This document shows positions 15,851-62,767 of a stretch of DNA of 64,000 nt, piece by piece. Both the position numbers and the translations under genes were made by a program. A model generated the notes under the pieces. That model was not told the DNA's origin, ran no database searches, and was given only the letters and a program-made list of their open reading frames with translations. The stretch is from assembly GCA_965220215.1 (NCBI GenBank), contig OZ244809.1:989366-1053365 (forward strand). The letters are read 5' to 3'. This DNA comes from Dehalococcoidia bacterium (GTDB lineage Bacteria; Chloroflexota; Dehalococcoidia; SHYD01). Numbering within the stretch: the stretch's first letter is position 1; every line of letters starts with the position of its first letter.

Positions 15851-15880
15851 AACCCGCTCTTAATCAGGGCGGGTTCTTCA
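15851..15880 (+). terminator. Possible terminator hairpin after the tRNA: AACCCGC-loop-GCGGGTT followed by CTTC.
   Basis: 7-bp stem with an 11-nt loop and a weak U-tract. It sits immediately before the start of the next CDS. Confidence 0.3.
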
Positions 15881-15885
15881 CGAAT

Positions 15886-32236: not shown

Positions 32237-32447
32237 AACCTGATGTCCGGATTCCGCCGCCCCTGAAACTGCATTCCTGATTGCAGAGGAATAGAGAATA
32301 AGTCTAGCACGAAAGCCCACGTTTGCGAAATAGGGATTTCACGCTACAATAGAGTCTACACACTGTGGGCGCAAGAGCGCCCATTGTGCGCTTTAGGGTG
32401 CAAGTAAAGCCACGAGCGGGGCACGCCGCTTGAAGGGAAGAGGTGCG

Positions 32448-34348: not shown

Positions 34349-34349
34349 C

Positions 34350-35351: not shown

Positions 35352-35360
35352 GGCAGCGTC

Positions 35361-36350: not shown

Positions 36351-36357
36351 TGAGCTT

Positions 36358-41919: not shown

Positions 41920-42044
41920 GGGAATTAGCTCATACCTTAAGGTTTGGGGACAGTCCCGCTGAGCACGGCAGCGTGCAACATTGCTTTACGGTTCCCAGGG
42001 GTTCTCTGCATCATCCACCGCCACACAGTTCCAGCGCGGTTGAA

Positions 42045-49036: not shown

Positions 49037-50104
49037 ATGCAAACCAGCCCGCACGCTAGCTCAAGCACACAGGCCCCCGGCGCGCCGGTGAGCTACTCCC
49101 TCATCATCCCCGTGTACAACGAGGAAGGAAACGTGGAGCCGCTGCACCAGGGGATCGTGCAGGCTATGGAGCAAGTGGAGGGCGACTACGAGATCATCTT
49201 CGTGGACGATGGCAGCCGGGATGCCAGCTTTCCCGAGCTCGCGGGCCTAGCCGAGCGGGACGCACGGGTGCGGGTGGTGCGCCTGCGACGCAACTTTGGG
49301 CAGACACCCGCCATCGCAGCCGGCATTGACCACTCCCGCGGCCAGATCATCGTCTTCATGGACGCAGACCTCCAGAACGACCCCAACGATATTCCCCGCA
49401 TGCTCAGTATGCTAGACGAAGGGTACGACGTGGTCAGCGGGTGGCGGCAGCGACGCCATGACACCTATCTCACCAGGGTTCTACCCTCAAAGCTCGCCAA
49501 CGGCCTTATCTCCTTCATCACCGGCGTCCACCTCCATGACTTCGGGTGTAGCCTGAAGGCCTACCGCCGGGAGGTGCTGGCCCACGTGAACCTCTACGGG
49601 GAAATGCACCGTTTTATCCCCGCCTACGCAGCCTGGGCGGGCGCTTCCATTGCTGAGGTGGTAGTGGAACATCACCCCAGGGTGCGGGGTAGCTCTAAGT
49701 ACGGACTCTCCCGGGCGTTCAGGGTGGTGCTGGACCTGGTGACGGCCAAGTTCCTGTCCAGCTACGCCACCAAGCCCATCTACGTCTTTGGGGGTGTAGG
49801 GCTGTTCTTAGAATCCCTGGCGTTTCTGTGCATCTTCGTAGCGCTTATCCAGAAGTTCACCGCCGACGTGTCGCTCATCCAGACACCGCTCACCATGTTG
49901 TCAGCTATCTTAGGGGCTACCGGGTTCATCGCCATCTTACAGGGGCTCAATGCTGAGGTGACAATGCGCACCTATCATGAGTCGCAACAAAAGCCGACCT
50001 ATGCGGTGCGGCAGGTGCTCAACCCGGCTCCATCGCCAAACGGGGCGCATCCCAGTGAAAGCTCGTCGGCCGGTTCGCAGGTGGGAGAGCATCCTGCTAC
50101 GTAA
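49037..50104 (+). CDS. Membrane-anchored GT2 polyprenyl-phosphate sugar synthase (GtrB/ArnC/DPM-synthase-like).
   Basis: SLIIPVYNEE, FVDDGS and DADLQNDP (DxD) motifs are present, plus two C-terminal TM helices. An internal Met start was chosen. Confidence 0.85.
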   Translation: MQTSPHASSSTQAPGAPVSYSLIIPVYNEEGNVEPLHQGIVQAMEQVEGDYEIIFVDDGSRDASFPELAGLAERDARVRVVRLRRNFGQTPAIAAGIDHSRGQIIVFMDADLQNDPNDIPRMLSMLDEGYDVVSGWRQRRHDTYLTRVLPSKLANGLISFITGVHLHDFGCSLKAYRREVLAHVNLYGEMHRFIPAYAAWAGASIAEVVVEHHPRVRGSSKYGLSRAFRVVLDLVTAKFLSSYATKPIYVFGGVGLFLESLAFLCIFVALIQKFTADVSLIQTPLTMLSAILGATGFIAILQGLNAEVTMRTYHESQQKPTYAVRQVLNPAPSPNGAHPSESSSAGSQVGEHPAT

Positions 50105-50180
50105 TACATTAGAGGCCGGTCAACTGACGCTAGGCGCTAGTGTCGCCGTGGTCTACGATACAAATAAAGAGGAGAACACT

Positions 50181-50651
50181 ATGACCTCAGGAGTGAACCC
50201 CATCCCGGAGGGCTACCATACCGCAACACCCTACCTGATCATAAAGGGTGCGTCAGACGCAATCGAGTACTACCAGCAAGCCTTTGGCGCGGTGGAGCGC
50301 TTCCGCATACCTGGCCCTGATGGGCTCATCGGCCACGCGGAGATCAGCATTGGCGATTCAACCATCGCGCTGGCCGACGAGATGGTAGAGATGGGCTTTA
50401 AGGGCCCCAAGACCCTCGGCGGTTCTCCTATCAGCCTCATGCTCTATGTGACGAACGTAGACGCGGTATTTGCCAGCGCCATTGCCGCCGGCGGAAAAGA
50501 GGTCCGCCCGGTAGAGAACCAGTTCTACGGCGACCGCACCGGCGGCCTGGAAGACCCTTTTGGTCACAGCTGGTATATCTCCACCCACGTAGAGGACGTT
50601 ACCCCGGACGAGCTAGAGCGGCGCGCCGCTGAGATGGCGTCGCAAGAGTAA
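50181..50651 (+). CDS. VOC-family (glyoxalase/PhnB-like) protein.
   Basis: An RBS AAAGAGGAG lies before the ATG. HAEISIGDSTI and FGHSWYIS motifs are present. Confidence 0.75.
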   Translation: MTSGVNPIPEGYHTATPYLIIKGASDAIEYYQQAFGAVERFRIPGPDGLIGHAEISIGDSTIALADEMVEMGFKGPKTLGGSPISLMLYVTNVDAVFASAIAAGGKEVRPVENQFYGDRTGGLEDPFGHSWYISTHVEDVTPDELERRAAEMASQE

Positions 50652-50671
50652 GGAGTACGCTTCGTTAGAGC

Positions 50672-52597
50672 ATGTGCGGCATTGCGGGGGCGGTTGATCT
50701 AACCAGAGCCGAGCCTATTACCAGCGCAGTGATGGGCTCTATGCTGGCGACCCTGCGCCACCGCGGCCCGGACGATGAGGGCACCTACTTTGATGACCAC
50801 ATAGCCCTGGGCGCACGCCGCCTCTCCATCGTCGATCTCGCTGGCGGCCACCAGCCCCTGAGCAACGAGGACGGCAGCGTGTGGGTGGCCCAGAACGGAG
50901 AGATCTTCAACTACCCGGCGTTGCGCTCCCAGCTTGAGACGCGGGGGCACCCCTTCGCCACCAACTGCGATACGGAAGTCCTTACCCACGCCTACGAGGA
51001 GTGGGGCACAGACCTGGTAACCCACCTGAATGGCCAGTTCGCCTTTGCACTGTGGGACAAGGCCCACCAGCGCCTGCTCTTGGCCCGAGACCGAACGGGC
51101 ATCAAGCCCCTCTACTACTGGCACAAGGACGGCGCGCTGGTCTTCGGCTCCGAGTTACGATCAGTTGTCGCTCACCCAGATGCGCCGCAGGAGCTGGACC
51201 TGGCGGCGGTCGACCAGTACCTCACCTACGAGCACATTCCGGTGCCTCGGAGCATCTTCAAGGAGATTGCAAAGTTACCACCGGGCCACATCCTGACGCT
51301 GGACCGTAGCGGCTTAAAGCTGCGCCAGTACTGGGACATGGATCTTGCCCAGAGTGAGCGTGCCCCTGTCCGTTCGGTAGATGAATGGGTGGAAGAGTTC
51401 AGAGCAACGCTTACAGAGGCCATTGGGATGGAGCTAATGAGCGACGTCCCCCTGGGCGTCTTCCTCAGCGGCGGCATCGATTCCAGCACCATAGCAGCGC
51501 TAATGACCGAGGCTGGCGTCAGTGATGTGCAGAGCTTCTCCATCGCGTTCGACGACCCCTCCTTCGATGAGTCCAGCCACGCCCGCCTCGTGGCGCGTCA
51601 CCTGAACACCACCCACCACGAGCGCACCGTCACCGAGACCGAGCTCCTAGACCTTGTCCCCCAGCTTTCGGACATCCTGGACGAGCCCCTGGGCGATTCC
51701 TCCTTCATCCCCAGCTACTTCCTCGCGCAGTTTGCCCGGGAGCACGTGACCGTGGCCCTGGGAGGCGATGGCGGCGACGAGTTACTGGCAGGCTACTCTA
51801 CGCTCCAGGCCCACCGCCTGGCCGATACGTACAATCTGTTGCCCGGCCCGTTGCGCACCAAGATGCTGAATCCCCTGGCCCAGCGGCTCCCCCTCTCCAT
51901 GAACAACATAAGCCTGGACTTTAAGGTGAAACGCTTCACTGCCTGGGCGGATGCGCCACCCATCGTGCGGCACCATCTCTGGCTGGGCTCCTTCTCTCCG
52001 GCTGACAAGCTGTCACTGCTGCGGCCGGAGGTGCGAGAGGCAGCAGGAAATGCTACCTTTGATCTAGCCGCAGACTACTACAATCACGGCGATGCACGAA
52101 AGTCCCTGAACCGCATCCTATATATGGATATGAAGCTCTACTTAGACACGGACATTCTCACCAAGGTGGACCGCTCCAGCATGGCAAACTCCCTGGAGGT
52201 GCGCGTCCCCTTCCTGAACCAGATCGTCCTAGACTTTGCCAGCCGCCTGCCGCTGAACATGAAGCTGCGGGGCTTCACCCGCAAGTACCTCCTTCGTAAG
52301 GCAGTGCGGGACATGATCCCCGCCTCCATCATCAAGCGCCCCAAGAAGGGGTTCAACATGCCCGTGGCTAAGTGGTTCCGCAGCGAGCTTCGGGAACTAC
52401 TGCAGGACACCCTCTCGGAGGGGGCGATCAACCGGGCCGGACTCTTTGAGTACGCGGCCGTGCAGCGGTTGCTGGACGACCACCTGCGGGCGCGGCGGGA
52501 CAATCGCAAGCTGCTCTGGACGCTGTTGGTCTTCCAGCTTTGGCACGATAAGTGGATGTCCCCTCACCAATCCGTACCTATGGTGGCTCCGGCATGA
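50672..52597 (+). CDS. asnB: Asparagine synthase (glutamine-hydrolysing), AsnB/WbpS-like amidotransferase.
   Basis: MCGIAG N-terminal nucleophile and the SGGIDSS PP-loop are present. Confidence 0.9.
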   Translation: MCGIAGAVDLTRAEPITSAVMGSMLATLRHRGPDDEGTYFDDHIALGARRLSIVDLAGGHQPLSNEDGSVWVAQNGEIFNYPALRSQLETRGHPFATNCDTEVLTHAYEEWGTDLVTHLNGQFAFALWDKAHQRLLLARDRTGIKPLYYWHKDGALVFGSELRSVVAHPDAPQELDLAAVDQYLTYEHIPVPRSIFKEIAKLPPGHILTLDRSGLKLRQYWDMDLAQSERAPVRSVDEWVEEFRATLTEAIGMELMSDVPLGVFLSGGIDSSTIAALMTEAGVSDVQSFSIAFDDPSFDESSHARLVARHLNTTHHERTVTETELLDLVPQLSDILDEPLGDSSFIPSYFLAQFAREHVTVALGGDGGDELLAGYSTLQAHRLADTYNLLPGPLRTKMLNPLAQRLPLSMNNISLDFKVKRFTAWADAPPIVRHHLWLGSFSPADKLSLLRPEVREAAGNATFDLAADYYNHGDARKSLNRILYMDMKLYLDTDILTKVDRSSMANSLEVRVPFLNQIVLDFASRLPLNMKLRGFTRKYLLRKAVRDMIPASIIKRPKKGFNMPVAKWFRSELRELLQDTLSEGAINRAGLFEYAAVQRLLDDHLRARRDNRKLLWTLLVFQLWHDKWMSPHQSVPMVAPA

Positions 52598-53613
52598 AGC
52601 AACGTCTGCTGCAGTACCTGGTCTGCCCCCGCTGTGGAGACGCCCTCTCCCTGACCGGTGACGCAGCTGCTGAGGAGGTGCTGGCGGGCGAGCTGCGGTG
52701 CGCCTCCGGCGACCACCGCTTCCCCATCACGGGTGGCATCCCCCGCCTGTTGCCGCCGGAGCTGGCGCAGGACGTGCAGCGCACCTCAGACAACTTTGGC
52801 TGGCAGTGGTTGGAGTTCAGCACACTCCATCCTTCAGAAGACCTCTACCAGAGCCAGTTTCTGGACTGGATATACCCCATCCAGCCGGATTATTTCACGG
52901 ATAAGGTGGTGCTGGACGCGGGCTGCGGCATGGGGCGCTTTGCGCTGGCCTCCGCAGAGTTTGGGGCCAAGGACGTGCTTGCCATAGACGTGAGCGAGGC
53001 GGTGGAGGCAGCCTATGCCAACACCCGCCACATGCCCAACGTTCACGTTATCCAGGCGGACATCTACAACCTGCCCTTCAAGCAACCGCTGGACTTTGCA
53101 TTCTCTATCGGCGTGCTCCACCACCTACCCAACCCCGAGGGCGGCTTCCGCGCGCTGGTGCGGCACCTAAAGCCGGGCGGGACTGTCTTTGCGTGGGTGT
53201 ACGGACGGGAGAACAACGGCTGGATCGTCAACATCGTGAGTCCGCTGCGGAGCAAGGTGTTCTCGCGGCTCCCTCGCATGGCGCTCTACAGCTTCTCCCT
53301 CTTGGCCGCTCTCATGGTGCACCCTACCCTCAAGCTGCTGTATCGCCCAGCTAACACCTGGTCCTTTCTCAAGCCTCTGACTAAGATACTGCCCTACAAC
53401 GGCTACTTGAGCTGGCTAGCCCAGTTTGGCTTCCGCCACAACCACCACGTGATCTACGACCACCTGGCCGCACCCACCGCTTTCTACATCAGCCGCCAGG
53501 AGTTCCAGGAGTGGTTCCGCCGCGCCTCCCTTTCCCAGCCCACTATCTCCTGGCGCAACCAGAATAGCTGGCGCGGCTGGGCAGTGCTGGAACATGCGGG
53601 TCCTAGCGCTTAA
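52594..53613 (+). CDS. Class I SAM-dependent methyltransferase with an N-terminal Trm112-like zinc ribbon.
   Basis: YLVCPRCGDAL and motif I VLDAGCGMGRF are present. Confidence 0.75.
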   Translation: MKQRLLQYLVCPRCGDALSLTGDAAAEEVLAGELRCASGDHRFPITGGIPRLLPPELAQDVQRTSDNFGWQWLEFSTLHPSEDLYQSQFLDWIYPIQPDYFTDKVVLDAGCGMGRFALASAEFGAKDVLAIDVSEAVEAAYANTRHMPNVHVIQADIYNLPFKQPLDFAFSIGVLHHLPNPEGGFRALVRHLKPGGTVFAWVYGRENNGWIVNIVSPLRSKVFSRLPRMALYSFSLLAALMVHPTLKLLYRPANTWSFLKPLTKILPYNGYLSWLAQFGFRHNHHVIYDHLAAPTAFYISRQEFQEWFRRASLSQPTISWRNQNSWRGWAVLEHAGPSA

Positions 53614-54766
53614 CTACGAGTTCCCTCCTCTGGGCGGCGGCGCCGCCAACGCGACGGCCCATATCTGTAGGGAACTGGTGCATCTTGGCTGCACCGTAGA
53701 AGTGATCACCTCCGGCTTCTCCGGCCTGCCAAAGCAAGAAGAGCTGGACGGCTACCGGGTGCGCCGCGTGCCCGTGCTGCGCCGCAAGACGCACCAGAGC
53801 TCGCCCTTAGAGATGGTGACCTACGTCGCCAGCGCGCTCGTTCCAGCGCTTCGCCTTAGCCACTCCTTCAAGCCGGACATCGTTCACGCCTACTTCGCCA
53901 TGCCCACAGGGCTCATCGCGCTTGCGCTCAAGACCTTCACCGGCGCGCCCTATCTCCTCTCCCTGCGAGGCGGCGACGTTCCCGGCTTCCTGCCGGAGAC
54001 CTTGGGCACGTTCCACCGCCTGACCGGCCCCTTCGCCAAGCCGGTGTGGGGCCGGGCCGGCGCCATTGTGGCAAACAGCCAGGGCCTACAGGAGTTGGCT
54101 CAGCACACGTCGCCCATTCATGTGGAGCTTGCCCCCAACGGCATCGATCTCGAGTTCTACCGCCCGCCGGCTACTCCGCGCAACGATGGCGTCTACCGCA
54201 TCCTTTTCGTGGGAAGGCTGGTGGAACAGAAGGGGCTCCGTTATCTACTGGACGCGCTGCCCGGTCTGCGCACGCAGGCGCAACAACCCGTGGAGCTAGT
54301 AGTAGTAGGCGACGGTCCCGCCCGTCTGACGCTGGAGGAGCAGGTGAGCGCCCTTGGTCTGGAAGCAGCGGTTCGCTTTGCCGGTTGGGCGCAGCGCGCC
54401 GAGATGCCCGGCCACTATCAATCAGCGGATGTCTTTGCTTTGCCCTCCTTCGAGGAGGGTATGCCCAACGTAGTGCTGGAAGCTATGGCCTCCGGGCTGC
54501 CCGTTGTCACAACGGACATCTACGGCAACCGAGAACTGGTAGCCCACGAAGAGAACGGCCTGCTCTTTCCCCCGGCCAGCGTCCAAGCCCTGGAAGCGGC
54601 GCTGCTTCGCCTCGCGCGGGAGCCGGAAGCTCGCCGTGGGATGGGCGATCGCTCCCGCGCACGAGCGCAGGACTACGGCTGGGGTCGAACTGCGCAGACC
54701 TACTGGGAGTTAAGCCAGCGGGTCATCACCAGGCGGCGCGAAGGTCACGTGGCGGCGGGCGTCTGA
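53594..54766 (+). CDS. Glycosyltransferase family 4.
   Basis: MRVLALNYEFPPLGGGAA at the N-terminus and EGMPNVVLEAMASGLPVVTTDIYGNRE at the C-terminus are present. Confidence 0.9.
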   Translation: MRVLALNYEFPPLGGGAANATAHICRELVHLGCTVEVITSGFSGLPKQEELDGYRVRRVPVLRRKTHQSSPLEMVTYVASALVPALRLSHSFKPDIVHAYFAMPTGLIALALKTFTGAPYLLSLRGGDVPGFLPETLGTFHRLTGPFAKPVWGRAGAIVANSQGLQELAQHTSPIHVELAPNGIDLEFYRPPATPRNDGVYRILFVGRLVEQKGLRYLLDALPGLRTQAQQPVELVVVGDGPARLTLEEQVSALGLEAAVRFAGWAQRAEMPGHYQSADVFALPSFEEGMPNVVLEAMASGLPVVTTDIYGNRELVAHEENGLLFPPASVQALEAALLRLAREPEARRGMGDRSRARAQDYGWGRTAQTYWELSQRVITRRREGHVAAGV

Positions 54767-55011
54767 TGCGCATGCTATTCGCAGCCGCCGGGCGTCTAAT
54801 ACGCATGCTATTCGTGACTGGCGGGCGTCTGATGCGCATGTTATTCGCAGTCGGTGGGCGTCTGATACGCGTGCTGTTCGCAGTCGGTGGGCGTCTGATG
54901 CCCATGCTAATCGCAGCCGGCAGGCGTCTGGTGCCCATGCTAATCGCAGCCGGCGAGCGTCTGATACTCGTGCTAATCGTAGCCGGGGAGCGTCTGATGC
55001 GCATACTATCC
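54748..55011 (+). repeat. Eight tandem copies of a diverged 33-bp repeat (consensus about gcagycggbgggcgtctgatgcgcatgctattc). In frame, it encodes 11-residue repeats A-x-G-G-R-L-h-R-h-L-F.
   Basis: Seen directly in the sequence. The units start at about 54748, 54781, 54814, 54847, 54880, 54913, 54946 and 54979. Each contains the ATGCGCAT palindrome or a variant. The units differ by synonymous or conservative changes. Confidence 0.9.
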
Positions 55012-56013
55012 GCGGTTGGCCGACGTCCCGCGCTGCGCGCCGCTGCGCAGGCGCTCTTTAGCCTGGCGCTCCTGACCTGGCTCTTCACCCGAATTGATGT
55101 CGCCCAACTTGCGGAGGCGCTCCTCACTACCGACCTCACCCTCTGGGCAGCGGGACTGGCAACAGCCGTAGCTGCGTGGCTGCTGAATACCGCCAAGTGG
55201 CGGGTGTTACTGCGAGCGCTGGGCTATCCCAGCCCCTATCTCAAACTCCTTGGCTTAAACTTTATCGGCATGTTCTACAGCATCGTCCTGCCCGGCCAGG
55301 TTAGCGGCGAGGTGGTCAAAGGCTTCCGGCTGGCCCGGCAGGGCGTGCCCTCCGGCCCGACCACAATGACCATCACCCTGGACCGTCTCACCGGCCTCGT
55401 CGCGCTGGGGCTGCTGGGCCTGGCGGGACTGCTCCTCGCGCCGCCGCCCTTCCCCAGCGGACCGTTCCTCGCCCTCTCCGCGCTGGTTGTGCTGGCCGCC
55501 GCCAGCCCTATTGTGCTGCTGGTCCTTCGTCCCTCCCCACACCCGGCACAGCCCCCTCCCAGCGACCTCAACCTGCTGCAACGCTTTCTCTATCAGGCCC
55601 AGGAGGCCATTGCCACCTACCGCCGGTCGCCCCAAGTGCTGGCATTAGCTCTGGTCCAAGCGCTTGGCTTCCAGGCGCTGGTCGCGGTATCTAACTACCT
55701 TATCGCCCTGGGCGTCGGCGTGCAGGTGTCGCCCATTGCGTTGCTTTGGATCGTGTCGGTGGTATCCCTGGTGAGCATGCTGCCGCTGGCGCTGGGGGGA
55801 CTCGGCCTGCGCGAGGGCGCGTATGCGTTCCTGCTGCTGCAGTATGGCGTGCCCCTCTCCCTCGGCATCTCCCTCTCCCTAGGCGTGTTCGGAGTTATCC
55901 TTACGCTTAGCGTCATGGGCGGCGTAGTAGAGGCCCTCTGGCCCCGGCTGGCCGGTGATGCCACAAACGCTACCCCAACGCCCCTGGAGAGCACCGAACC
56001 CCAACACCGGTAG
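54766..56013 (+). CDS. UPF0104 / flippase-like-domain membrane protein with an N-terminal 8 x 11-residue amphipathic repeat region.
   Basis: ATG 54766 overlaps the TGA stop of the GT4 gene (tgATGcgcATG). After the repeats the sequence reads LNTAKWRVLLRALGYPSPYLKLLGLNFIGMFYSIVLPGQVSGEVVKGFRL, matching the lysylphosphatidylglycerol-synthase TM region / flippase-like family. It is a paralog of the partial gene at the window start. Confidence 0.7.
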   Translation: MRMLFAAAGRLIRMLFVTGGRLMRMLFAVGGRLIRVLFAVGGRLMPMLIAAGRRLVPMLIAAGERLILVLIVAGERLMRILSAVGRRPALRAAAQALFSLALLTWLFTRIDVAQLAEALLTTDLTLWAAGLATAVAAWLLNTAKWRVLLRALGYPSPYLKLLGLNFIGMFYSIVLPGQVSGEVVKGFRLARQGVPSGPTTMTITLDRLTGLVALGLLGLAGLLLAPPPFPSGPFLALSALVVLAAASPIVLLVLRPSPHPAQPPPSDLNLLQRFLYQAQEAIATYRRSPQVLALALVQALGFQALVAVSNYLIALGVGVQVSPIALLWIVSVVSLVSMLPLALGGLGLREGAYAFLLLQYGVPLSLGISLSLGVFGVILTLSVMGGVVEALWPRLAGDATNATPTPLESTEPQHR

Positions 56014-56019
56014 CGCGCC

Positions 56020-59000
56020 ATGATCGCTGCACAGCTTCTTTTTTACTTTGCCTTGAGCCTGGGGCTACTGAGCTACCTGGGCTACGGCCCGGCGCGCCTC
56101 CTGCTCCCGGAGCAGTATCGCCGCTGGCGGCTGTTGCTCGTGCCTCTCCTGGGTTTGTGCGCCACCGTGGTGCTCTCCTCCTTCCTGAACTACCTACTGC
56201 CCATGACCCAGGTCACCTGGCTCATCCTAGCCGCCGCGACGGTGCTGAATGCGACGCTCGTCTGGCGCAGCCGCTCCTTAGGACTCGACAAGCCTACTAG
56301 AACGGACGGCGTCGTGCTGGCCTTAATGGCTGTTGCCTATCTGCTGGGCGTACTGCCCCTTATCCACGATGGCACCACCGCTTTCCTTGGCCTCCAGTGG
56401 GATCTTGAGCTCTACCTCCCCCTCACCGAGTACTTGAAACGTTATCCCATGGGCCTGCCATTTACTGCGTTCCCTAACCCTCTCCTGGACGCTATTAACT
56501 CCGCCCCGGTGCGCGGCGGCTCTGGCTGGGGCTTCTCCTACCTGGACGCGTTCCTGGGAACCGTCGTAGGCCACGCCTCCTTCGAGACCTTCCGGCCAAC
56601 GCTGCACCTGGTGTTCGCGTTGAGCGTACCCGCCGTCTACCTGTTCTGCCGCGGCGGCCTGGCAATGGGCGCGGGCGCGGCGCTGCTGGCGGCTGCCCTT
56701 ACCGCAACCAACGGCCTCAACCTCTGGATCGCTTCTATGGGGCTGGCAGGCCACGCCGTGACGTTCAGCGCGCTGCCCTTAGCCTTCACTGCAACCCTGT
56801 GGGCGCTGCGCGATGGCACCCGGCGATCAGTCATGCTGGCCGGACTCTGCGCCGCGACACTCCTACTCTCCTTCTACACCGGCGCGGTCGTCCTCTACGC
56901 CCTGGGTGTCGGAGGGGCCGGCCTAGCGTTGCTCGTCCGATCCACGCAACGGCGGGCTACCATCGTTACCGGGCTGGGCATCGCCGCCGCAACCTTGGCC
57001 TTCGGCGCGGCGGGACATCTGCGCTTTCTGGAGCTACTGCCCCTCTACTTCCAACAAGGCTTCAGCGGCGGCTGGCAGGTCAACCAATTCAGTCCTATCA
57101 GCCAGGGGCTGGGCCTTACCCCCTACGAACTGGTAGTGCAGCGCCTGGGCAGCAGCACCGCCTGGGACTGGCTCTCCCCAAACATCCTCAATTTAGCGGC
57201 GATCATGCTCACACTGGGAGCAGCGGCGTTCACTGCCGCGGCGCTTCGGCGGGGCAACTGGGATCGCACCGCCTTCATTGCGTTGCTGCTTGTCTTCGTC
57301 GCGTTCGGACTCTATCTCCGCTACGTAAGTGCGTACCCCTACGGCTACTTCAAGCTCATCTCCCTCAGCGCGTTCCTGCTGGCCGCCGGCCTAGCTCAAG
57401 GCATCGCGACGCTCTGGGCCTGGTCCTCGGCGCAGCACGTCCCGCGCCCTGGCCCGGGCGCGGCATTGGGCAGCGCAGTGGCAGACAAGGCTTCGTTGCT
57501 ACTACCGAGACTTGCCCAGAGCCGCCTTGCCACAGCAGCGCGCGGCGGCATGCTCCTTTACGGGCTGCTCTTTCTCGCCCTCCTTAGCCACAACTCCCTA
57601 CTGAGCGTGCGCTTCTTCTGGCAGCCCGACCCGGACGAGCTGCCTCGTGCCACCTGGGAGCTGCACGCGCTACAGAGCATCGTTCCTGCGGGAGCTCCCG
57701 TGCTCCTGAGCAGCCGCTCCAGCTTTGAGCCCCGCTTTGCAGGCATGGTGGCCTACTTCTTGATAGACAGCCCCATCACCGGCGATGCCAAGACCGCCTA
57801 CGGACAGGTGGAGAGCAACCGCCCTGATATGGACTACGAGTACATGGTGCTGCAAGCCAGTGAGCGAGCCGACGTCCGCGGCCTGTCGCCGGAGGATCTG
57901 GTGTGGCAGAACGACCTAGTGGCCCTCTATCAGCGGCCTGAACAATGGCTGGAGGACATCGACCTGGAGAGCGTGCGCAGCCCTTTCCTCTTGAGCAGCC
58001 GCCAGCCCGCTACCCTTTCGCTCTCGCCTGGTGGGTGGGACATTGCTTCCGGCGGGACACGCTTTGAGGACGCGCCGCTGGCAGCGGACGGCCCGCTTCA
58101 GGTTGAGTACACCTTCCTGAGCTTTGCGGACGTGACGGCGCAGGTCAAGGGTCCGCAGTCCACTATCGACGTGAAGCTGCCAGCGGGCCTCTCCACCTAC
58201 CGCACCCAGGCGCTACCCCTCCCAACACTCCTGGAGCTTTCTCTGGCCGATACCTCCACCCCAGCCTGGTTGCTCAACGTGCGGCTGCAAGCGCCCGAGA
58301 GCGCCACGGCCGCACTAACACACTTCCCGGACACCCTCGCGCTACGCCCAACCGTCCGTTCCGGCGACGGGCAAGCGCAGCTCTCCCTGGACTACTCCTT
58401 TGGCGACTCCCGCGGCGGTTCAGTCTCGCTGGCCGCAGAGCTGTATCAGCAGAGCGGTCAAGACCGAGCGCTGCGCCCCAGCGGCTTCTGGCGGTTGGAG
58501 GAGCTCAAGGCCGCGGGCTTTGGCAGCAGCAGCTTCCTGCTAAACACGGCCGACTGGCAGTGCGGCGTCACGCCCACCGACCTCTTCCCTGCCACACAAA
58601 CTGCCCTAGAGGACGGCGCGTATCAGGTCCACCTGGCTGCATATTATGTTAACGAAGAGGTGGGCCGCTGGCCCTGGCTCTCATTCACCGTCCAGCAGGG
58701 GAAGATCATAGACACTCGCTCCGTAGACCTCCCGCCCTACCAGTTGCTCTACCTCTCGCCGCCGCAAGACGTGCGGGGCATGGCGGAGGCGCTCCCGGCC
58801 GGCGCGCAGGTCTACCTTCCCCCGCTCATCCAGCCCAACACCTCCTTCCAGCGGGTCGCGGTGGCTAGCCTCCAGGACCGCCGCTTCTACACCGACGCTC
58901 CTACCTTCTTCCCCGGCGCGCTGCCGGCCTCTCCTAGCCAGGTATACGGCTACGGTTTGCTGCCAGCCGAGGCAGTCCCGGCAGACTGGGGCTTCCTGCC

Positions 59001-59559
59001 CAAGGCGCTGTGGTCGAACGACCAGACGGCGCTCTACCCGCGCGATCCCAACAGCACCCAGCCGAGCGCTCGGTTAGGCGCAAGCAACGCGACCAGCGAG
59101 CAGTTCTCTGAGAGCACGCTGGTGGTGGATGCCGAAGCTACCCTCAGTGCTACAGGCGCTCACGTCACGCTCGCGACCCGCGGCAGCGTGCCCCCGGGCG
59201 CAGTCCTGGGCGTCGATATCTACGGCGAGTCCGCCTGCAACGTGCAGCACTTCGGCTACTGGGCGACCCCATTGGATGCTCCATCCTCTGAGCTGCGCAT
59301 CGATCTCAACCTCCCGCAGCAACAGGGGAGCATCTCAAGCGCCAGTAGTGGTGCGCTACCTGCCCTCACCGAAGTCTGGCCGGTGCACCCCGGCTCCTTC
59401 CGCGCCTTCCTCTTCTACAAGGACGGCGACCGCTACGAGACCTCGCCCCTCTTTGAGTTCACTCTAACGCCCGAGGGGATCACCCGCACCCGCACCTACC
59501 CGCAGACCATGCGTATTCCTTTAGGGAGCAATAGTGGCCATACAAGCTACGCCCGGTAG
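56020..59559 (+). CDS. Large (1179 aa) polytopic membrane protein with a roughly 700-aa extracytoplasmic C-terminal domain; a putative GT-C-type glycosyltransferase or polymerase.
   Basis: About 13 N-terminal TM helices followed by a long soluble domain. The Emb/Aft-like architecture is only inferred; no family motif was confidently recognised. Confidence 0.5.
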   Translation: MIAAQLLFYFALSLGLLSYLGYGPARLLLPEQYRRWRLLLVPLLGLCATVVLSSFLNYLLPMTQVTWLILAAATVLNATLVWRSRSLGLDKPTRTDGVVLALMAVAYLLGVLPLIHDGTTAFLGLQWDLELYLPLTEYLKRYPMGLPFTAFPNPLLDAINSAPVRGGSGWGFSYLDAFLGTVVGHASFETFRPTLHLVFALSVPAVYLFCRGGLAMGAGAALLAAALTATNGLNLWIASMGLAGHAVTFSALPLAFTATLWALRDGTRRSVMLAGLCAATLLLSFYTGAVVLYALGVGGAGLALLVRSTQRRATIVTGLGIAAATLAFGAAGHLRFLELLPLYFQQGFSGGWQVNQFSPISQGLGLTPYELVVQRLGSSTAWDWLSPNILNLAAIMLTLGAAAFTAAALRRGNWDRTAFIALLLVFVAFGLYLRYVSAYPYGYFKLISLSAFLLAAGLAQGIATLWAWSSAQHVPRPGPGAALGSAVADKASLLLPRLAQSRLATAARGGMLLYGLLFLALLSHNSLLSVRFFWQPDPDELPRATWELHALQSIVPAGAPVLLSSRSSFEPRFAGMVAYFLIDSPITGDAKTAYGQVESNRPDMDYEYMVLQASERADVRGLSPEDLVWQNDLVALYQRPEQWLEDIDLESVRSPFLLSSRQPATLSLSPGGWDIASGGTRFEDAPLAADGPLQVEYTFLSFADVTAQVKGPQSTIDVKLPAGLSTYRTQALPLPTLLELSLADTSTPAWLLNVRLQAPESATAALTHFPDTLALRPTVRSGDGQAQLSLDYSFGDSRGGSVSLAAELYQQSGQDRALRPSGFWRLEELKAAGFGSSSFLLNTADWQCGVTPTDLFPATQTALEDGAYQVHLAAYYVNEEVGRWPWLSFTVQQGKIIDTRSVDLPPYQLLYLSPPQDVRGMAEALPAGAQVYLPPLIQPNTSFQRVAVASLQDRRFYTDAPTFFPGALPASPSQVYGYGLLPAEAVPADWGFLPKALWSNDQTALYPRDPNSTQPSARLGASNATSEQFSESTLVVDAEATLSATGAHVTLATRGSVPPGAVLGVDIYGESACNVQHFGYWATPLDAPSSELRIDLNLPQQQGSISSASSGALPALTEVWPVHPGSFRAFLFYKDGDRYETSPLFEFTLTPEGITRTRTYPQTMRIPLGSNSGHTSYAR

Positions 59560-61516
59560 CGGAGCCGCGCCAGTTAGTGTAGCGAGGGGAAGAAGCGTCT
59601 GGCGCGCACTCCTGCACCGAGACGCCATCCTTGTTGGGGCGCTCTTTCTGCTCACACTAGGCATCAGCATCCCCAACCTGGAGCACAACCCGCCGCTCTC
59701 CTACGATGAGGGCTACGTGTTGCAAACGCCTCACAACTTGCTGACGCGGGGCTTCTACGGAACCTGGGCTAAGAGCTGGAACCTCCCCTTTGATACCTAC
59801 ACCAGCACCGGCCCCACCGTCCTGCTGCCAGTCGCTGCCAGCTTTGCAGTCTTTGGGGAGGGCGTGGTGCAAGCCCGCATGGTCGTTGTTATCTATGGCG
59901 CTCTAGCGGCAGCGGCCGGGTACGCGCTCTTCCGGCTCACCCTAAGCCGCGGCCTCGCGCTCTTGGCAGCGCTGCTTCTGTCTCTCTCCCTCTACCCCTA
60001 CCAGCGCAGCGTCTTGGGAGAGGTCCCAGGCCTCTTCTGGCTGCTGCTAGGATGCTGGCTCTGGCTTCGGGCCATCGAGCGCGGCGGCCACACCCGGTTG
60101 CTCGCCCTCGCGGGTGCGGCCTGGGGCGCAGCGGCCCTCACTAAGCTGGCTCTCGGCCCCATTGTGCTGGGCGGGCTGGCGCTTTGCTGGCTGCGTTTCA
60201 GGTTCGGAGCAAAGGATGCTTATCTTGCGCCCCGCTCGCTCTACTTGCCTCTGGCGGCTGCACTGCTGCCCCTGCTGCTGTGGTACGGCCTGCAAGCCGT
60301 CATCCTGGGCGGCGACACAGTAGTAGACCGTCTGGCGACGGTATGGACGTACCAGCCTCAGGTGGCTGCTGCGACGCCCGGCGGCATCCTCCAGAATGCG
60401 CTGGCTCTGCCCACCATCTTGCCTCAAGGGCTGCTTGTGTGGATGGGGCCAGTCGTTCTTGTCATCTTCTCCTGGTTACTCATCTCACCCACGCCCGCTA
60501 GGACACTCCCTGCAGCTATGTGGCTTATGTTCCTGGGCTTCTATCTTGTTTCCGTTGGATGGCCCCGCTACGGCTTCTGGGCTGTGGCCCTTACCGCCGC
60601 TTTCACCGCGCAGCTCATTCCCTTGCTACGCGCCGCGCTCCCAACCCTCGGCCAACGACAACAGCAAGCCGTAACCGGTGTCATCATCGCGGCACTGGTA
60701 GCGCCCCTTGCCCTCTGGAACTGGAGCGCACTGGAGCGGGTCGATGCAAGCCCCCAAGAGGTCGTCTCGCTCTTACAGGGGCAGGTAGCTCCCCAGGAAA
60801 ACATAGGGAGTACCGAGTGGGAGCTAGTCTTTCTGCTGGGTCAGGAAGTAGAGGTCCCACTTCTCCGCATCGCCACAGCAGTCTCAGAAACGGGGACGGG
60901 CAACAACGACTCGGCCTGGCCCGAGACCGACTGGGTGGTCACCGGCCCCATAGGCGATTTCCTAGGCACAACGACCAAGCTCGTGGAGAACGATTCGTTC
61001 TTGGAGCGCAGCGTCGTAGGACCCTACCGCATCTTCCAGCGCACTGCGGGGCCGCCGCCCGGCTGGCGATGGAGCACGGCGGGTGCGACGGCGATCTCTC
61101 TCGCGCCTGGTGCTACCATCGGTCAGTCATTCACCGCCGACTACGACGTGCTCACAGAGGTGCGCTTGCTCATCGCGGGAGGTAACGGGCGTAGCAATGC
61201 TCCGGTGCGGCTGGCGCTGTATGCAGACCCCCGCGGCGGCGCGCCCTTAGCCACCGCAACGCTCTCCGGCGCCCAGCTCACGGAGAACAAATGGTACACT
61301 TTCCCAATAGGACGGCTTGCAGTGACAAAAGGCGACCGCTACCACATTGAGGTCACGGGGCTGGAGCAGCCTGGCAAGGTTGCACCCGGCCTTTGGTACA
61401 ACTCCTCCGCAGACCTCTATCCTTCCGGCAACTGGTACAGCAACGGAACCTCCCAGCAAGGCGACCTCTACTTCGGGCTGCTGGGGCACAACAACACGCA
61501 ACGTAGGGGCTCCTGA
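59534..61516 (+). CDS. GT-C-fold glycosyltransferase, family 39/83-like (ArnT/PMT-type; polyprenyl-phosphate-sugar dependent).
   Basis: The first extracytoplasmic loop carries the DE motif PPLSYDEGY after TM1. About 11 TM helices, then a roughly 250-aa C-terminal soluble domain. Confidence 0.65.
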   Translation: MAIQATPGSGAAPVSVARGRSVWRALLHRDAILVGALFLLTLGISIPNLEHNPPLSYDEGYVLQTPHNLLTRGFYGTWAKSWNLPFDTYTSTGPTVLLPVAASFAVFGEGVVQARMVVVIYGALAAAAGYALFRLTLSRGLALLAALLLSLSLYPYQRSVLGEVPGLFWLLLGCWLWLRAIERGGHTRLLALAGAAWGAAALTKLALGPIVLGGLALCWLRFRFGAKDAYLAPRSLYLPLAAALLPLLLWYGLQAVILGGDTVVDRLATVWTYQPQVAAATPGGILQNALALPTILPQGLLVWMGPVVLVIFSWLLISPTPARTLPAAMWLMFLGFYLVSVGWPRYGFWAVALTAAFTAQLIPLLRAALPTLGQRQQQAVTGVIIAALVAPLALWNWSALERVDASPQEVVSLLQGQVAPQENIGSTEWELVFLLGQEVEVPLLRIATAVSETGTGNNDSAWPETDWVVTGPIGDFLGTTTKLVENDSFLERSVVGPYRIFQRTAGPPPGWRWSTAGATAISLAPGATIGQSFTADYDVLTEVRLLIAGGNGRSNAPVRLALYADPRGGAPLATATLSGAQLTENKWYTFPIGRLAVTKGDRYHIEVTGLEQPGKVAPGLWYNSSADLYPSGNWYSNGTSQQGDLYFGLLGHNNTQRRGS

Positions 61517-61522
61517 TCTATC

Positions 61523-62767
61523 GTGACGGCTGAACCGGCGTCCAACACCCCAGAAGGACAGCCTGGTTCTGCCCGTACCGGCTCCCTGGCCGAGGTCGCG
61601 GCGCTTTTCTTTAAACTCGGCTGCATTGGCTTTGGAGGGCCGGCAGCACACATCGCGATGATGCGGGCTGAGGTGGTGGAACGCCGCAAGTGGCTCAGCG
61701 ACGAGGAGTTTCTCGACCTGCTAGGCGCCACCAACCTGATACCAGGCCCCAACTCCACGGAGCTGGCTATCCACCTGGGGTATCGCCGGGCCGGCTGGGC
61801 CGGACTGGTGGCCGCAGGCGTCTTGTTCATCAGTCCGGCTGTGGCGATTGTGCTGGCACTGGCATGGGCCTATATGGCTTATGGCAGCCTGCCCCAGGCC
61901 CAATGGCTGCTTTATGGCGTAAAGCCCGTGATCATCGCCATTGTCCTCCAAGCCTTGTGGGGACTGGGGCGCACTGCCTTCAAGCAACCTCTATCCATAG
62001 TCCTCACAATAGCCGTCATTGCGCTCTACCTCTGGGGCGTCAACGAGCTAGCTCTCCTCTTTGGCGGCGGCTTGGCCATGCTCGTGATCCAAGGCGGTCG
62101 CAAGCTAATCGCTAAGTTCAGCGCATCTGCCCTCGCACTCGTAGCGCCTGCTAGCTCCGCGCCCGCCGCTCTAAGCGCCGTGACCGCAATGGCTGCTCCC
62201 TTCAGCCTCACCACCCTCTTCCTCACATTCCTCAAGATCGGTTCCGTGCTCTACGGCAGCGGCTATGTCCTCCTGGCATTCTTGCGAGGCGACCTCGTGG
62301 AGCGCCTCGGCTGGTTGACCGACCAGCAGCTACTGGACGCCGTCTCAGTGGGCCAGTTCACGCCCGGCCCTGTTTTTACCACCGCAACCTTTGTGGGCTA
62401 CGTAGCCGGGTATGAACACAGCGGTCTGGTGATGGGCGGCATAACGGCAGCTTTGCTCGCCACACTTGGCATCTTTCTACCCTCTTTCGTCTTCGTTGCC
62501 ATCTCCGGCCCGCTCGTCCCCCATCTGCGGCGTTGGACTGTCACCGCCTTATTGCTCACCGGTGTGAATGCCGCCGCCCTCGGCCTCATGGCTGCGGTGA
62601 CCCTGGTCCTGGCCCGCGCCGCCTTGCTCGATCCCTTCACGGTTGTCCTTGCCATTGCAGCGCTTGTCGTCCTGTTGCGCTGGAACGTGAACTCCGGCTG
62701 GATTGTGCTGGCTGGAGGCCTGTTGGGCATTGCGTGGCGATTCGGTACACTAGCAGTGAGTATCTAG
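61523..62767 (+). CDS. chrA: Chromate-ion transporter (CHR family, long two-domain form).
   Basis: FFKLGCIGFGGPAAHIAMM...LIPGPNSTELA in the first half and the duplicated motif FLKIGSVLYGSGYVLLAFL...FTPGPVFTTATFVGY in the second half. Confidence 0.85.
   Translation: MTAEPASNTPEGQPGSARTGSLAEVAALFFKLGCIGFGGPAAHIAMMRAEVVERRKWLSDEEFLDLLGATNLIPGPNSTELAIHLGYRRAGWAGLVAAGVLFISPAVAIVLALAWAYMAYGSLPQAQWLLYGVKPVIIAIVLQALWGLGRTAFKQPLSIVLTIAVIALYLWGVNELALLFGGGLAMLVIQGGRKLIAKFSASALALVAPASSAPAALSAVTAMAAPFSLTTLFLTFLKIGSVLYGSGYVLLAFLRGDLVERLGWLTDQQLLDAVSVGQFTPGPVFTTATFVGYVAGYEHSGLVMGGITAALLATLGIFLPSFVFVAISGPLVPHLRRWTVTALLLTGVNAAALGLMAAVTLVLARAALLDPFTVVLAIAALVVLLRWNVNSGWIVLAGGLLGIAWRFGTLAVSI

Follow-up and report, generated by a model that had tools for sequence, protein, structure and literature searches.

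A Dehalococcoidia operon linking a UPF0104 flippase-family gene with an ArnC/GtrB-type GT2 and two predicted GT-C glycosyltransferases

Gene content of the locus

The window analyzed here is a stretch of 64,000 nucleotides from contig OZ244809.1 of an uncultured Dehalococcoidia bacterium (Chloroflexota). From position 45288 to the window end, it contains a tightly packed block of genes on the plus strand, and all of the genes described in an earlier note on this DNA were found where it had placed them. From MT1 through CapK, adjacent genes overlap or are separated by intergenic gaps of no more than 76 nt. We consider it moderately likely that everything from 45288 to beyond 64000 forms a single operon for a surface glycoconjugate. 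Its genes and features are as follows:

45288–46598, plus strand: MT1, SAM methyltransferase of 436 aa, first gene of the conserved block (Pfam Methyltransf_23/25 at residues 235–380)
46607–47656, plus strand: GT4a, cytoplasmic glycosyltransferase of GT-B fold (PF00534, E 3e-37)
47595–49028, plus strand: GT4b, GT4 glycosyltransferase of 477 aa (PF00534, E 3e-13; synteny conserved)
49037–50104, plus strand: GT2 of the ArnC/GtrB/DPMS type (PF00535, E 1.5e-33)
50181–50651, plus strand: VOC/glyoxalase-fold protein in a variable operon slot (PF00903, E 1.8e-8)
50672–52597, plus strand: AsnB-type glutamine-dependent amidotransferase of the exopolysaccharide-associated kind (PF00733, E 5e-103)
52552–53613, plus strand: MT2, methyltransferase that carries a Trm112-like zinc ribbon at its N-terminus (Methyltransf_25/11, E 6e-18; Trm112p)
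53594–54766, plus strand: GT4c, third GT4 glycosyltransferase (PF00534, E 8e-44; PF13439, E 2e-21)
54753–55013, no strand: 33-bp tandem repeat, 7.9 copies (TRF score 305)
54766–56013, plus strand: UPF0104/LPG_synthase_TM protein (MprF flippase-domain family), candidate lipid-linked-sugar flippase (PF03706, E 4e-44)
56020–59559, plus strand: BIG, predicted GT-C-fold glycosyltransferase of 1179 aa
59534–61516, plus strand: predicted ArnT/PMT-like GT-C glycosyltransferase of 660 aa (PMT_2, PF13231), accessory operon member
61523–62767, plus strand: ChrA chromate-transporter-family gene (PF02417, E 5e-83)
62774–64000, plus strand: CapK-like (phenylacetate-CoA-ligase-type adenylate-forming) enzyme, truncated where the window ends, with 408 codons of open frame

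The surroundings named in the earlier note (GT4 enzymes, methyltransferases, AsnB, and a CapK-like ligase) comprise three GT4 genes, two methyltransferases, AsnB, and a CapK-like ORF. MT1 orthologues occupy the same slot in L001, L003, L005, L006, and L009; the N-terminal ~230 aa of the protein gave no Pfam match. GT4a is 61–67% identical in related loci, its reading frame overlaps that of GT4b by 62 nt, and TM prediction gave no segment in GT4b. The AsnB protein scored 628 bits against the XrtA/PEP-CTERM amidotransferase model TIGR03108, under the 817-bit cut-off; every related locus has the gene, as does the rearranged cluster L027, and its presumed role is the amidation of a sugar carboxylate. 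MT2 adjoins GT4c in each related locus, whereas its orthologue in L027 follows UPF0104. The CapK-like ORF is 98.5% identical to an L004 product with the CapK_C domain (PF27533), and in L001, L002, and L004 the GT-C genes are followed by CapK_C genes, which L027 has as well. The VOC/glyoxalase ORF was listed at 49977–50651, but the strong Shine-Dalgarno sequence AAAGAGGAG precedes the ATG at 50181, so this gene most likely starts at 50181 and not at 49977. In L004 the orthologue has a called length of 156 aa, and a SIMPL-domain gene holds the slot in L001 and L003. The ChrA gene, shared with L004 and L005 (relatives at 96% identity), is absent between PMT2 and CapK in L001; it is probably a lineage-specific insertion outside the pathway. 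Domain searches of the window genes found neither a priming phosphoglycosyltransferase nor Wzx, Wzy, or an ABC exporter in the operon, which counts against the pathway proposed below, as it offers no route for the acceptor.

The GT2, UPF0104, and GT-C proteins

The PF00535 domain of GT2 spans residues 21–182 and contains DDGS (residue 57) and DAD (residue 109); hydrophobic C-terminal helices follow at about 247–281 and 283–306. Residues 20–335 align with residues 10–321 of the ArnC structure 9hwj (E 3.6e-49), and residues 15–326 with residues 23–328 of the GtrB sll0501 structure 5ekp (E 1e-36), a full-length match that takes in the membrane part. GT2 is thus presumed to be a polyprenyl-phosphate sugar synthase. 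As an ArnC equivalog (Und-P-Ara4FN synthase, NF007986) it was rejected, with 186 bits versus a 529-bit cut-off, which makes it a relative and not an orthologue; since the score is so far under the cut-off, its sugar is not taken to be Ara4FN.

The UPF0104 protein matches PF03706 with 151.7 bits (cut-off 33.4) over model positions 3–296 of 302, and the TIGR00374 "flippase-like domain" with 65.3 bits (cut-off 43.2). These alignments bear out two descriptions in the earlier note, that of a membrane-anchored GT2 with a DxD motif and two C-terminal TM helices and that of a UPF0104 flippase-like protein at 54766–56013. The latter is not MprF, as it contains only PF03706, ends after the membrane domain, and lacks the aminoacyl-phosphatidylglycerol synthase domain (DUF2156). 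COG0392 (UPF0104) already carries the name "predicted membrane flippase"; experiments on the family support phospholipids as substrates (MprF), and the role of GpgF is only a prediction. The protein is a candidate flippase of lipid-linked sugars. The GT4c stop codon overlaps the first UPF0104 ATG (gap of -1 nt), while GT2 sits 4.7 kb upstream of UPF0104 in the window. UPF0104 is thus translationally coupled to GT4c and not to GT2, so that the flipped lipid may be either the GT2 product or the GT4c product. The first ~77 codons of the ORF at 54766 are the 33-bp tandem repeat, which is missing from orthologues of 312–338 aa (orthologue lengths range over 312–340 aa); the conserved core begins at about 54997, and the ATG at 54997 may be the effective start. 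The repeat arose by amplification of the junction between the GT4c stop and the UPF0104 start. Its copy number differs among close relatives (8.8 in L004, 1 in L005), and UPF0104 proteins with 426 aa and with 338 aa occur as variants at 94–95% identity.

BIG consists of helices to about residue 531, followed by a beta-rich region of ~640 aa. The membrane domain of ~530 aa has a predicted GT-C fold. The C-terminal ~640 aa, presumed to be extracytoplasmic, comprise duplicated alpha/beta modules and CBM-like beta-sandwiches; the length of 1179 aa given in the earlier note stands, and its extracytoplasmic domain of 700 aa is reduced to this figure. The fourth TM helix is followed by a helix at 129–141 that opens with residue D128, present in 152/152 family representatives (E130 in 123/152). 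As the loops after TM1 and TM3 are rich in Arg/Lys, the D128 loop is placed outside the cell, so that BIG would carry a conserved acidic residue in its first extracytoplasmic loop. Neither half of BIG matched Pfam at E<=10 (PMT, PMT_2, STT3, YfhO, GT87/DUF2029, DUF6541, Arabinose_trans, and others), and no NCBIfam match and no PDB profile match at E<=10 were found. Comparison of BIG with the family of the 660-aa protein by hhalign gave a probability of only 51%. A distant relative bears the NCBI name "DUF2029 domain-containing", but this protein has no Pfam match here. By these profile comparisons BIG lies outside every described GT-C sequence family, and no existing model covers it. Its family comprises ~780 cluster representatives, and the majority of the distant paralogues have neither UPF0104 nor GT2 nearby.

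The 660-aa protein matches PF13231 (PMT_2) with 38.1 bits, above the cut-off of 26.1, and contains SYDEGY at residues 56–61, which upholds the first-loop motif reported for 59534–61516. Residues D58 and E59, invariant in 16 sequences, open a helix at 57–72 after TM1, and the predicted GT-C membrane fold is followed by a C-terminal CBM-like beta-sandwich. A GT-C fold, the outcome on which the earlier note had made its reading depend, is therefore predicted for both large membrane proteins, and each has an invariant acidic residue. Neither protein was accepted as an oligosaccharyltransferase (STT3/AglB/PglB), since W[WYF]D.[GS] and WWD are missing from both. The 660-aa gene is present in 5/9 informative loci and is thus accessory.

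Conservation of the gene order across genomes

Among related Dehalococcoidia, 10 distinct loci share the order MT1-GT4-GT4-GT2-x-AsnB-MT2-GT4-UPF0104-BIG, with a BIG identity of 38–55% and a UPF0104 identity of 43–62%. Because the order recurs in 10 distinct loci at 38–55% identity, the arrangement is not due to chance. UPF0104 adjoins BIG in every related locus, with GT4c directly upstream, and GT2 is found in all nine of the related loci that extend far enough upstream.

Linkage is also seen in less similar settings. In the Chloroflexaceae locus L019, UPF0104 lies directly after a BIG-like gene with overlapping reading frames, the nearest GT4 being 4.3 kb away; in a second Chloroflexaceae locus it lies 3 kb downstream of the BIG-like gene. 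L027 is a rearranged cluster in which a GT2 orthologue (55% identity) is directly upstream of UPF0104; it also contains orthologues of MT2, AsnB, and CapK, a UDP-glucose dehydrogenase, and an epimerase, and adjoins two archaellin-type genes. L029 carries an overlapping string of a GT2 with two TM helices, UPF0104, and a PMT_2 GT-C, its UPF0104 being labelled Planctomycetes by NCBI. In L028, a GT4-MT-UPF0104 group adjoins an acyltransferase and a CDP-alcohol phosphatidyltransferase. Among the unrelated UPF0104 contexts sampled, three of six had no link to a glycosyltransferase. The association of UPF0104 with GT2/GT-C genes, which the earlier note had put forward as a test, therefore appears in all related loci, Chloroflexaceae, L027, and L029, and GT2, the flippase candidate, and GT-C are genetically linked and co-conserved.

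Proposed pathway, alternatives, and relation to known systems

The reading we favor, with somewhat better than even confidence, is that the operon core is a three-component transmembrane glycosylation system in which UPF0104 flips the GT2-made lipid-linked sugar to the GT-C enzymes. On the cytoplasmic face, the ArnC/GtrB-type GT2 would, by homology, move a sugar from a nucleotide sugar onto polyprenyl phosphate. UPF0104, a stand-alone homolog of the MprF flippase domain, would then carry the lipid-linked sugar to the outer leaflet, as its family and gene linkage suggest. Outside the cell, the GT-C enzymes, with their predicted folds and conserved residues, would use it as donor. BIG would be the core transferase, its CBM-like C-terminal domains holding a glycan acceptor in the manner of the Emb/AftD arabinosyltransferases, and the 660-aa ArnT/PMT-like enzyme (Asp58-Glu59) an optional second transferase. 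The three GT4s, two methyltransferases, AsnB, and the CapK-like ligase probably build and modify the acceptor or the sugar, and the product may plausibly include a uronic acid that is amidated or methylated. Candidates for the acceptor are a lipoglycan, a glycan of the cell wall, and a protein of an S-layer or filament. Synteny and linkage thus support, but do not prove, the three-component module of the earlier note, and UPF0104 may act on either the GT2 or the GT4 product.

The second of these substrates leads to a lipoglycan or glycolipid route (LM/LAM- or GpgSDF/HexSDF-like), which we regard as unlikely but deserving of weight. Here the GT4s, or at least GT4c, would glycosylate an inner-face lipid (a phospholipid, diacylglycerol, or polyprenyl phosphate) and UPF0104 would flip that glycolipid; outside, BIG and the 660-aa GT-C would extend it using GT2-made polyprenyl-phosphate sugars that cross otherwise, so that a second flippase is required for the GT2 product. 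The overlap of GT4c and UPF0104, a pair adjacent in all related loci, is in keeping with this, as are the L028 group beside lipid-type enzymes (acyltransferase and CDP-alcohol phosphatidyltransferase), the GT-B–UPF0104 fusions reported in Chloroflexi, Actinobacteria, and Nitrospirae (PplT preprint), and the coupling of a glycolipid synthase with a UPF0104 protein in gpgSDF and hexSDF. The supported family substrates are phospholipids (MprF), and the operon resembles PIM/LM synthesis in having three GT4 genes but neither a priming enzyme nor an exporter. However, UPF0104 is linked to GT2 with no GT4 in L027 and L029 and to a GT-C alone in L019, where the nearest GT4 is 4.3 kb away, and the deacetylase of gpgSDF/hexSDF was not found; the need for a second flippase also counts against this route.

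Makarova et al. 2015 (PMC5898192) also proposed that the lipid-linked glycans used to glycosylate S-layers are flipped by UPF0104 proteins. On an improbable en bloc reading, the GT4s would build a polyprenyl-diphosphate oligosaccharide, UPF0104 would flip it, and BIG would transfer the whole glycan to a protein (S-layer/archaellin-like) or wall polymer, with GT2 and the 660-aa GT-C merely adding a side-branch sugar. The archaellin-type genes beside L027 would suit such a transfer, and the archaellins of Chloroflexota are glycosylated by enzymes that have not been identified (PMC12488501); against this, neither GT-C protein has the WWDxG motif, the window contains no priming phosphoglycosyltransferase, and multiple CBM-like domains suit a glycan acceptor better than a peptide. 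Phospholipid translocation, proposed for the UPF0104 family in the PplT preprint, would make the protein a bystander inside a polysaccharide cluster with no role in glycosylation. Half of the sampled unrelated UPF0104 genes (3/6) indeed lack glycosyltransferase neighbors, but we consider this reading very improbable, because UPF0104, at 43–62% identity, never leaves its place next to GT4c and BIG in the 10 distinct loci, the UPF0104 frames overlap or nearly abut their neighbors here and in L019 and L029, and the link to the GT2 orthologue persists in the rearranged L027.

Bacterial three-component glycosylation systems are well established (PMC11127046, PMC8035078). GtrB/GtrA/GtrC, CsbB/GtcA/YfhO, ArnC/ArnEF/ArnT, and C. 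youngae ORF15/ORF14/ORF12 share with the window a membrane-anchored GT2 (here alignable to ArnC and GtrB over its full length), one or more GT-C enzymes whose first outer loop has an acidic residue, a small polytopic membrane protein, and the arrangement in one operon. Unlike them, the window has UPF0104/LPG_synthase_TM in the flippase slot and not GtrA, SMR, Wzx, or MATE, the families listed for bacterial systems; its core GT-C falls outside the described sequence families, and its operon is larger, with three GT4 genes and sugar-modifying enzymes. In archaea, AglD of Haloferax is a GT2-UPF0104 fusion, UPF0104 genes adjoin PMT/STT3-like genes, and in M. jannaschii MJ_1079 (PMT/STT3-like) and MJ_1080 (AglD-like) form a neighborhood with UPF0104; Makarova et al. 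2015 predicted UPF0104 as an archaeal glycosylation flippase beside GT2/GT-C genes (PMC5898192). The AglD/arCOG00899 neighborhoods thus bring together GT2, UPF0104, and GT-C-like genes with the same flippase prediction, whereas the window is from Chloroflexota and has separate genes, a different and much larger GT-C, and additional GT4, AsnB, and CapK genes. The GtrA/GtrB/GtrC-like logic with a different flippase that the earlier note described is thus supported, but its idea of an uncharacterised flippase-type component is, given the 2015 prediction, not new.

In relation to the mycobacterial Ppm1/PimA-PimB' (GT4)/PimE-MptA-MptB/EmbA-C-AftD pathway (PIM/LM/LAM/arabinogalactan), Pfam and PDB profiles relate BIG to neither Emb, Aft, nor GT87; the window has no phosphatidylinositol-related genes, and the proposed mycobacterial flippase Rv3789 is of another family. 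In MprF, gpgSDF (P. aeruginosa), and hexSDF (C. difficile), the UPF0104 gene directly follows a cytoplasmic-face lipid-modifying enzyme, and the window, like gpgS-gpgF, has a GT4 immediately before UPF0104. The operon was not assigned to the gpgSDF/hexSDF type, as no gene in it has a deacetylase domain; its GT-C enzymes and ArnC-like GT2 have no part in those three systems, and the aminoacyl-PG synthase domain is missing here. The operon looks like a variant of a known system rather than a new principle, with an MprF-type protein in the flippase slot and an outer-face transferase for which no model exists.

A broader and more tentative proposal, to which we give somewhat less than even credence, is that UPF0104 is a further class of polyprenyl-phosphate-sugar flippase for bacterial GT2/GT-C systems, alongside GtrA, SMR, Wzx, and MATE, and that BIG founds a new GT-C family, marked by an invariant Asp and by CBM-like domains in tandem, for a mainly Chloroflexota surface glycoconjugate. 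If so, the Chloroflexota operon and the independent L029 contig with its Planctomycetes-labelled UPF0104 would be the candidates for this class, and the BIG family might belong to the machinery by which Chloroflexota glycosylate proteins of S-layers or of archaellum-type filaments.

Operon layout and conserved gene order

Between 45288 and the window end, open reading frames follow one another closely on the plus strand. From the first methyltransferase gene (MT1) to the CapK-like gene all junctions overlap or leave a gap of at most 76 nt, so the block from 45288 onward has the structure of an operon. The genes, assigned from Pfam and NCBIfam scans, are listed here.

Genes of the operon (window coordinates, strand, description; basis Pfam/NCBIfam scans except where another is given)
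45288-46598, +, methyltransferase (MT1), N-terminal half without assignment
46607-47656, +, GT4 glycosyltransferase (GT4a)
47595-49028, +, GT4 glycosyltransferase (GT4b)
49037-50104, +, GT2 glycosyltransferase
50181-50651 (most likely), +, VOC-fold protein
50672-52597, +, AsnB-type amidotransferase, nearest type the exopolysaccharide-associated TIGR03108
52552-53613, +, Trm112-ribbon methyltransferase (MT2)
53594-54766, +, GT4 glycosyltransferase (GT4c)
54766-56013, +, UPF0104/LPG_synthase_TM (PF03706, E 4e-44; TIGR00374, "flippase-like domain")
56020-59559, +, BIG, 1179 aa, no match in Pfam/NCBIfam
59534-61516, +, PMT_2 protein (the 660-aa GT-C)
61523-62767, +, ChrA-family transporter
62774 onward, +, open frame, 98.5% identical to a CapK_C-domain protein of a close relative

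These assignments confirm the earlier note, which had placed the GT2, the UPF0104 gene and two GT-C genes in one plus-strand block at 49037-61516, and all the neighbours it named (GT4s, methyltransferases, AsnB and a CapK-like ligase) are in the list. Elsewhere in the window, a check for a priming phosphoglycosyltransferase, Wzx/Wzy, GtrA or an ABC exporter found none, and the genes around the operon are housekeeping, MoxR/VWA and transport genes.

Gene order was compared by tblastn of the window proteins against all loci fetched from other genomes and their called genes. The order MT1–GT4–GT4–GT2–(VOC or SIMPL)–AsnB–MT2–GT4–UPF0104–BIG is kept in every related locus long enough to reveal it, 10 distinct loci in which BIG identity is 38-55%, and the GT2 is present in all nine that reach far enough upstream. 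The 660-aa GT-C follows BIG in five of nine informative loci; it is missing from L003, L008 and L013 and is a fragment in L006. Downstream of the GT-C genes lie CapK_C, DUF362 and an ECF sigma/DUF5667 pair. When 185,579 species genomes were scanned with a single peptide pattern, taken from the BIG family itself and thus biased as a taxonomic survey, relatives turned up only in Chloroflexota MAGs, the close ones in Dehalococcoidia and the distant ones in Chloroflexia/Chloroflexaceae. Two Dehalococcoidia MAGs are 96% identical to the window at the protein level.

The block also varies in places. The ChrA chromate-transporter-family gene (61523-62767), which separates the gene of the 660-aa GT-C from the CapK-like gene within the operon, is an insertion restricted to the close lineage of the window (also L004 and L005) and is missing from that position in L001. 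The slot between GT2 and AsnB holds the VOC/glyoxalase-fold gene (50181-50651) in the lineage of the window and a SIMPL-domain gene in other lineages (L001 4027-4851, L003 3982-4809), and L007 and L010 carry about 1.7 kb of additional sequence between AsnB and MT2.

The GT2, the GT-C proteins and UPF0104

The window GT2 aligns over its full length, membrane-proximal and transmembrane parts included, with the solved ArnC structures (E 3.6e-49) and with GtrB sll0501 (E 1e-36); its match to DPMS is weaker. It contains the motifs DDGS and DAD and two C-terminal hydrophobic helices, in agreement with the earlier description of a GtrB/ArnC-like enzyme with a DxD motif and two C-terminal TM helices. 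By family, the full-length alignment makes it a predicted polyprenyl-phosphate glycosyltransferase. Its score falls far under the ArnC equivalog cut-off, so the sugar cannot be named.

BIG gives no Pfam, NCBIfam or PDB sequence or profile match, even at E<=10, and is placed by fold comparison only, which assigns it to GT-C as had been proposed. Its AlphaFold model is confident (pLDDT 86.3, pTM 0.81). Asp128 belongs to a QWDLE motif and sits where the first helix beyond the fourth TM helix begins. All 152 aligned representatives retain it, Tyr441 is kept in 156 of 157 and Lys445 in 150 of 157, and Arg/Lys-rich loops after TM1 and TM3 argue for the N-terminus and the Asp128 loop lying outside the cell. 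The length of 1179 aa stands, and the extracytoplasmic domain earlier put at 700 aa is replaced by a soluble C-terminal part of about 640 aa. This region is internally duplicated (residues 547-639 versus 917-1008, E 7e-5), the two alpha/beta modules corresponding to window 57658-57936 and 58768-59043, each followed by beta-sandwich domains. The architecture recalls the Emb and AftD arabinosyltransferases. A word-indexed search returned 29 relatives, none with a Pfam domain, and those with a named source are all Chloroflexi/Dehalococcoidia MAG proteins. An exhaustive profile search gave 782 cluster representatives, 232 of them below 1e-30, typically 850-1050 aa long; eight sampled had no Pfam family above threshold, and the four organism-named members sampled comprised three from Chloroflexota and one Deltaproteobacteria-labelled MAG. 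The confident fold, the conserved residues and the lack of a library match together indicate that BIG is a GT-C enzyme, as modelled, of a family covered by no HMM library. Since current libraries miss it, this sizeable GT-C family is invisible to annotation.

The 660-aa protein carries the SYDEGY motif attributed to it, at residues 56-61, and profile-profile comparison of its family with BIG gives 51% probability, with the expected TM helices aligned but short of a decisive match. Both GT-C proteins lack the oligosaccharyltransferase motif WWDxG. OZ253478.1, the Dehalococcoidia chromosome of L006, also encodes a second, shorter BIG paralogue of 905 aa (29% identity) at L018 9947-12664. Its gene is distant from the operon, with genes for an FAA hydrolase and a beta-eliminating lyase on either side; neither UPF0104 nor GT2 was found near it.

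A PDB sequence search with the UPF0104 protein gave no match. In the UPF0104 HMM search weak matches with E>1e-20 were disregarded, the HMM containing short BIG fragments. Among distant BIG paralogues, a 1092-aa BIG-like gene in a Chloroflexaceae locus (L019) overlaps the UPF0104 start, with no GT2 nearby, and in L020 UPF0104 lies 3 kb downstream of the BIG-like gene; most of the others stand alone. Six UPF0104 relatives outside this operon family were sampled (L025-L030). The JGI locus L027 reads DUF6541–GT2–GT2–UDP-glucose dehydrogenase–epimerase–GT2–UPF0104–MT2–AsnB–CapK, and the GT2 directly before UPF0104 is 55% identical to that of the window. The DUF6541 protein scored 6.7% and 0.1% probability against the profiles of the two GT-C proteins, neither significant, and its "HQDEW" stretch aligned to "SYDEGY", in that non-significant alignment, is a hint only. 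Two archaellin-type genes (PF01917, 196 aa each; 218-1629, minus strand) adjoin this cluster (2052-16594). Archaellins of Chloroflexota reportedly carry O-glycans attached by enzymes not yet known (PMC12488501), which makes the cluster type a candidate for filament-protein glycosylation. In L029, whose UPF0104 protein (P0090) NCBI labels Planctomycetes, overlapping frames at 802-8387 encode an unknown protein of 1115 aa, a GT2, another GT2 of 300 aa bearing two TM helices at its C-terminus, UPF0104 and a PMT_2 GT-C of 474 aa with "WFDE" after TM1, a string that we propose as a minimal version of the three-component system. L028 has GT4–MT–UPF0104 adjoining lipid enzymes, and L025, L026 and L030 show no glycosyltransferase link to UPF0104. 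From these contexts and the synteny, the linkage of UPF0104 to GT2 and GT-C genes that the earlier note expected is real and recurrent but clade-specific.

Proposed mechanism and rival readings

Systems in which a GT2, a flippase and an outer-face GT-C work together are textbook knowledge in bacteria. For the flippase position GtrA, SMR, Wzx and MATE proteins are named and UPF0104 goes unmentioned (PMC11127046, PMC8035078), and direct biochemical proof exists for none of these flippases (PMC11127046). AglD is a GT2–UPF0104 fusion, in archaea UPF0104 genes that stand alone lie beside genes for AglD-like GT2s and PMT/STT3-like proteins, and the whole COG0392 family was concluded to be flippases for glycosylation (Makarova, Galperin and Koonin 2015, PMC5898192); "flippase" is already in its COG and NCBIfam names. 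Thus the window component does differ from the four named types, but the idea behind it is already published for archaea. What is new here is the bacterial instance, conserved mainly in Chloroflexota, the partner GT-C family and the minimal GT2–UPF0104–PMT_2 operon of L029, a clean bacterial test case for the flippase hypothesis.

As far as computation goes, the three-component reading is supported, and we regard it as somewhat probable for the operon core. The analysis shows the folds, the family assignments, the linkage of the genes and the conservation of catalytic-type residues, whereas every activity, the transport direction, the sugar and the acceptor are inferred. The GT2 would charge polyprenyl phosphate, UPF0104 would flip the product, and BIG, with the 660-aa enzyme where present, would move the sugar onto an extracytoplasmic acceptor that their CBM-like domains hold; building and modifying this acceptor or the sugar would fall to the GT4s, methyltransferases, amidotransferase and CapK-like ligase. 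In L027, co-conservation of GT2, UPF0104, MT2, AsnB and CapK with UDP-glucose dehydrogenase and epimerase may point to a uronic acid that is amidated or modified in some other way.

In the main rival reading, which we consider rather unlikely, the cargo of UPF0104 is a glycolipid produced by the GT4 whose gene adjoins its own and is translationally coupled to it. Such a system would resemble gpgSDF/hexSDF, or PIM flipping ahead of LM/LAM extension, and is favoured by the GT-B–UPF0104 fusions reported in Chloroflexi. An en bloc, oligosaccharyltransferase-like role for BIG is improbable, as the WWDxG motif and a priming enzyme are both absent. For the UPF0104 family a preprint on PplT proposes phospholipid translocation instead; that the protein is here a passenger phospholipid translocase is contradicted by the synteny and seems very improbable. 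We advance tentatively, at slightly under even chances, the joint reading that UPF0104 proteins are one more, genuine class of flippases for polyprenyl-phosphate sugars and that BIG represents a new GT-C family serving a surface glycan of mainly Chloroflexota. If true, the MprF flippase fold would handle isoprenoid-linked sugars as well as phospholipids. Of the steps in extracytoplasmic glycosylation, that of the flippase is understood least, and for it the compact, strongly syntenic UPF0104-containing systems (this operon and L029) would offer a testable candidate family, and the operon is a defined way into one surface glycan of the Chloroflexota, Dehalococcoidia included, whose envelope chemistry is barely known.

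The GT4c/UPF0104 junction and flanking genes

A 33-bp tandem repeat at window 54753-55013 is the amplified junction at which the stop codon of GT4c (TGA) and the start codon of UPF0104 (ATG) overlap. Every unit consists of 11 codons in the UPF0104 reading frame, with an ATG of its own; in the final unit GGGGAG lies 7 nt before the ATG at 54997. Among relatives about 96% identical, copy number is 7.9 in the window, 8.8 in L004 (5187-5476) and protein P0045, and 1 in L005 (~8975-9015), P0046 and P0050. The repeat could alter translational coupling or give UPF0104 a variable (RLMRMLFAxGG)n N-terminal extension, and the single copy in L005 may reflect collapse during assembly. P0050, an apparent GT4–UPF0104 fusion, was set aside as a frameshifted or low-quality call, its C-terminus being out of frame and garbled.

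Two adjacent, divergent MoxR-type systems occupy window 32430-38094 (+) and 38138-43070 (-), one reading MoxR AAA–DUF58/VWA–unknown–VWA/BatA–VWA/TPR (Bat-like) and the other MoxR AAA–DUF58–848-aa transglutaminase/DUF4129 protein; L019 likewise has a MoxR gene close to its BIG-like/UPF0104 pair. A UbiD decarboxylase–DUF2867–UbiA prenyltransferase set is found at 6612-9630, and a further UbiA-family prenyltransferase gene (43128-44096) directly precedes the operon, in the opposite orientation.
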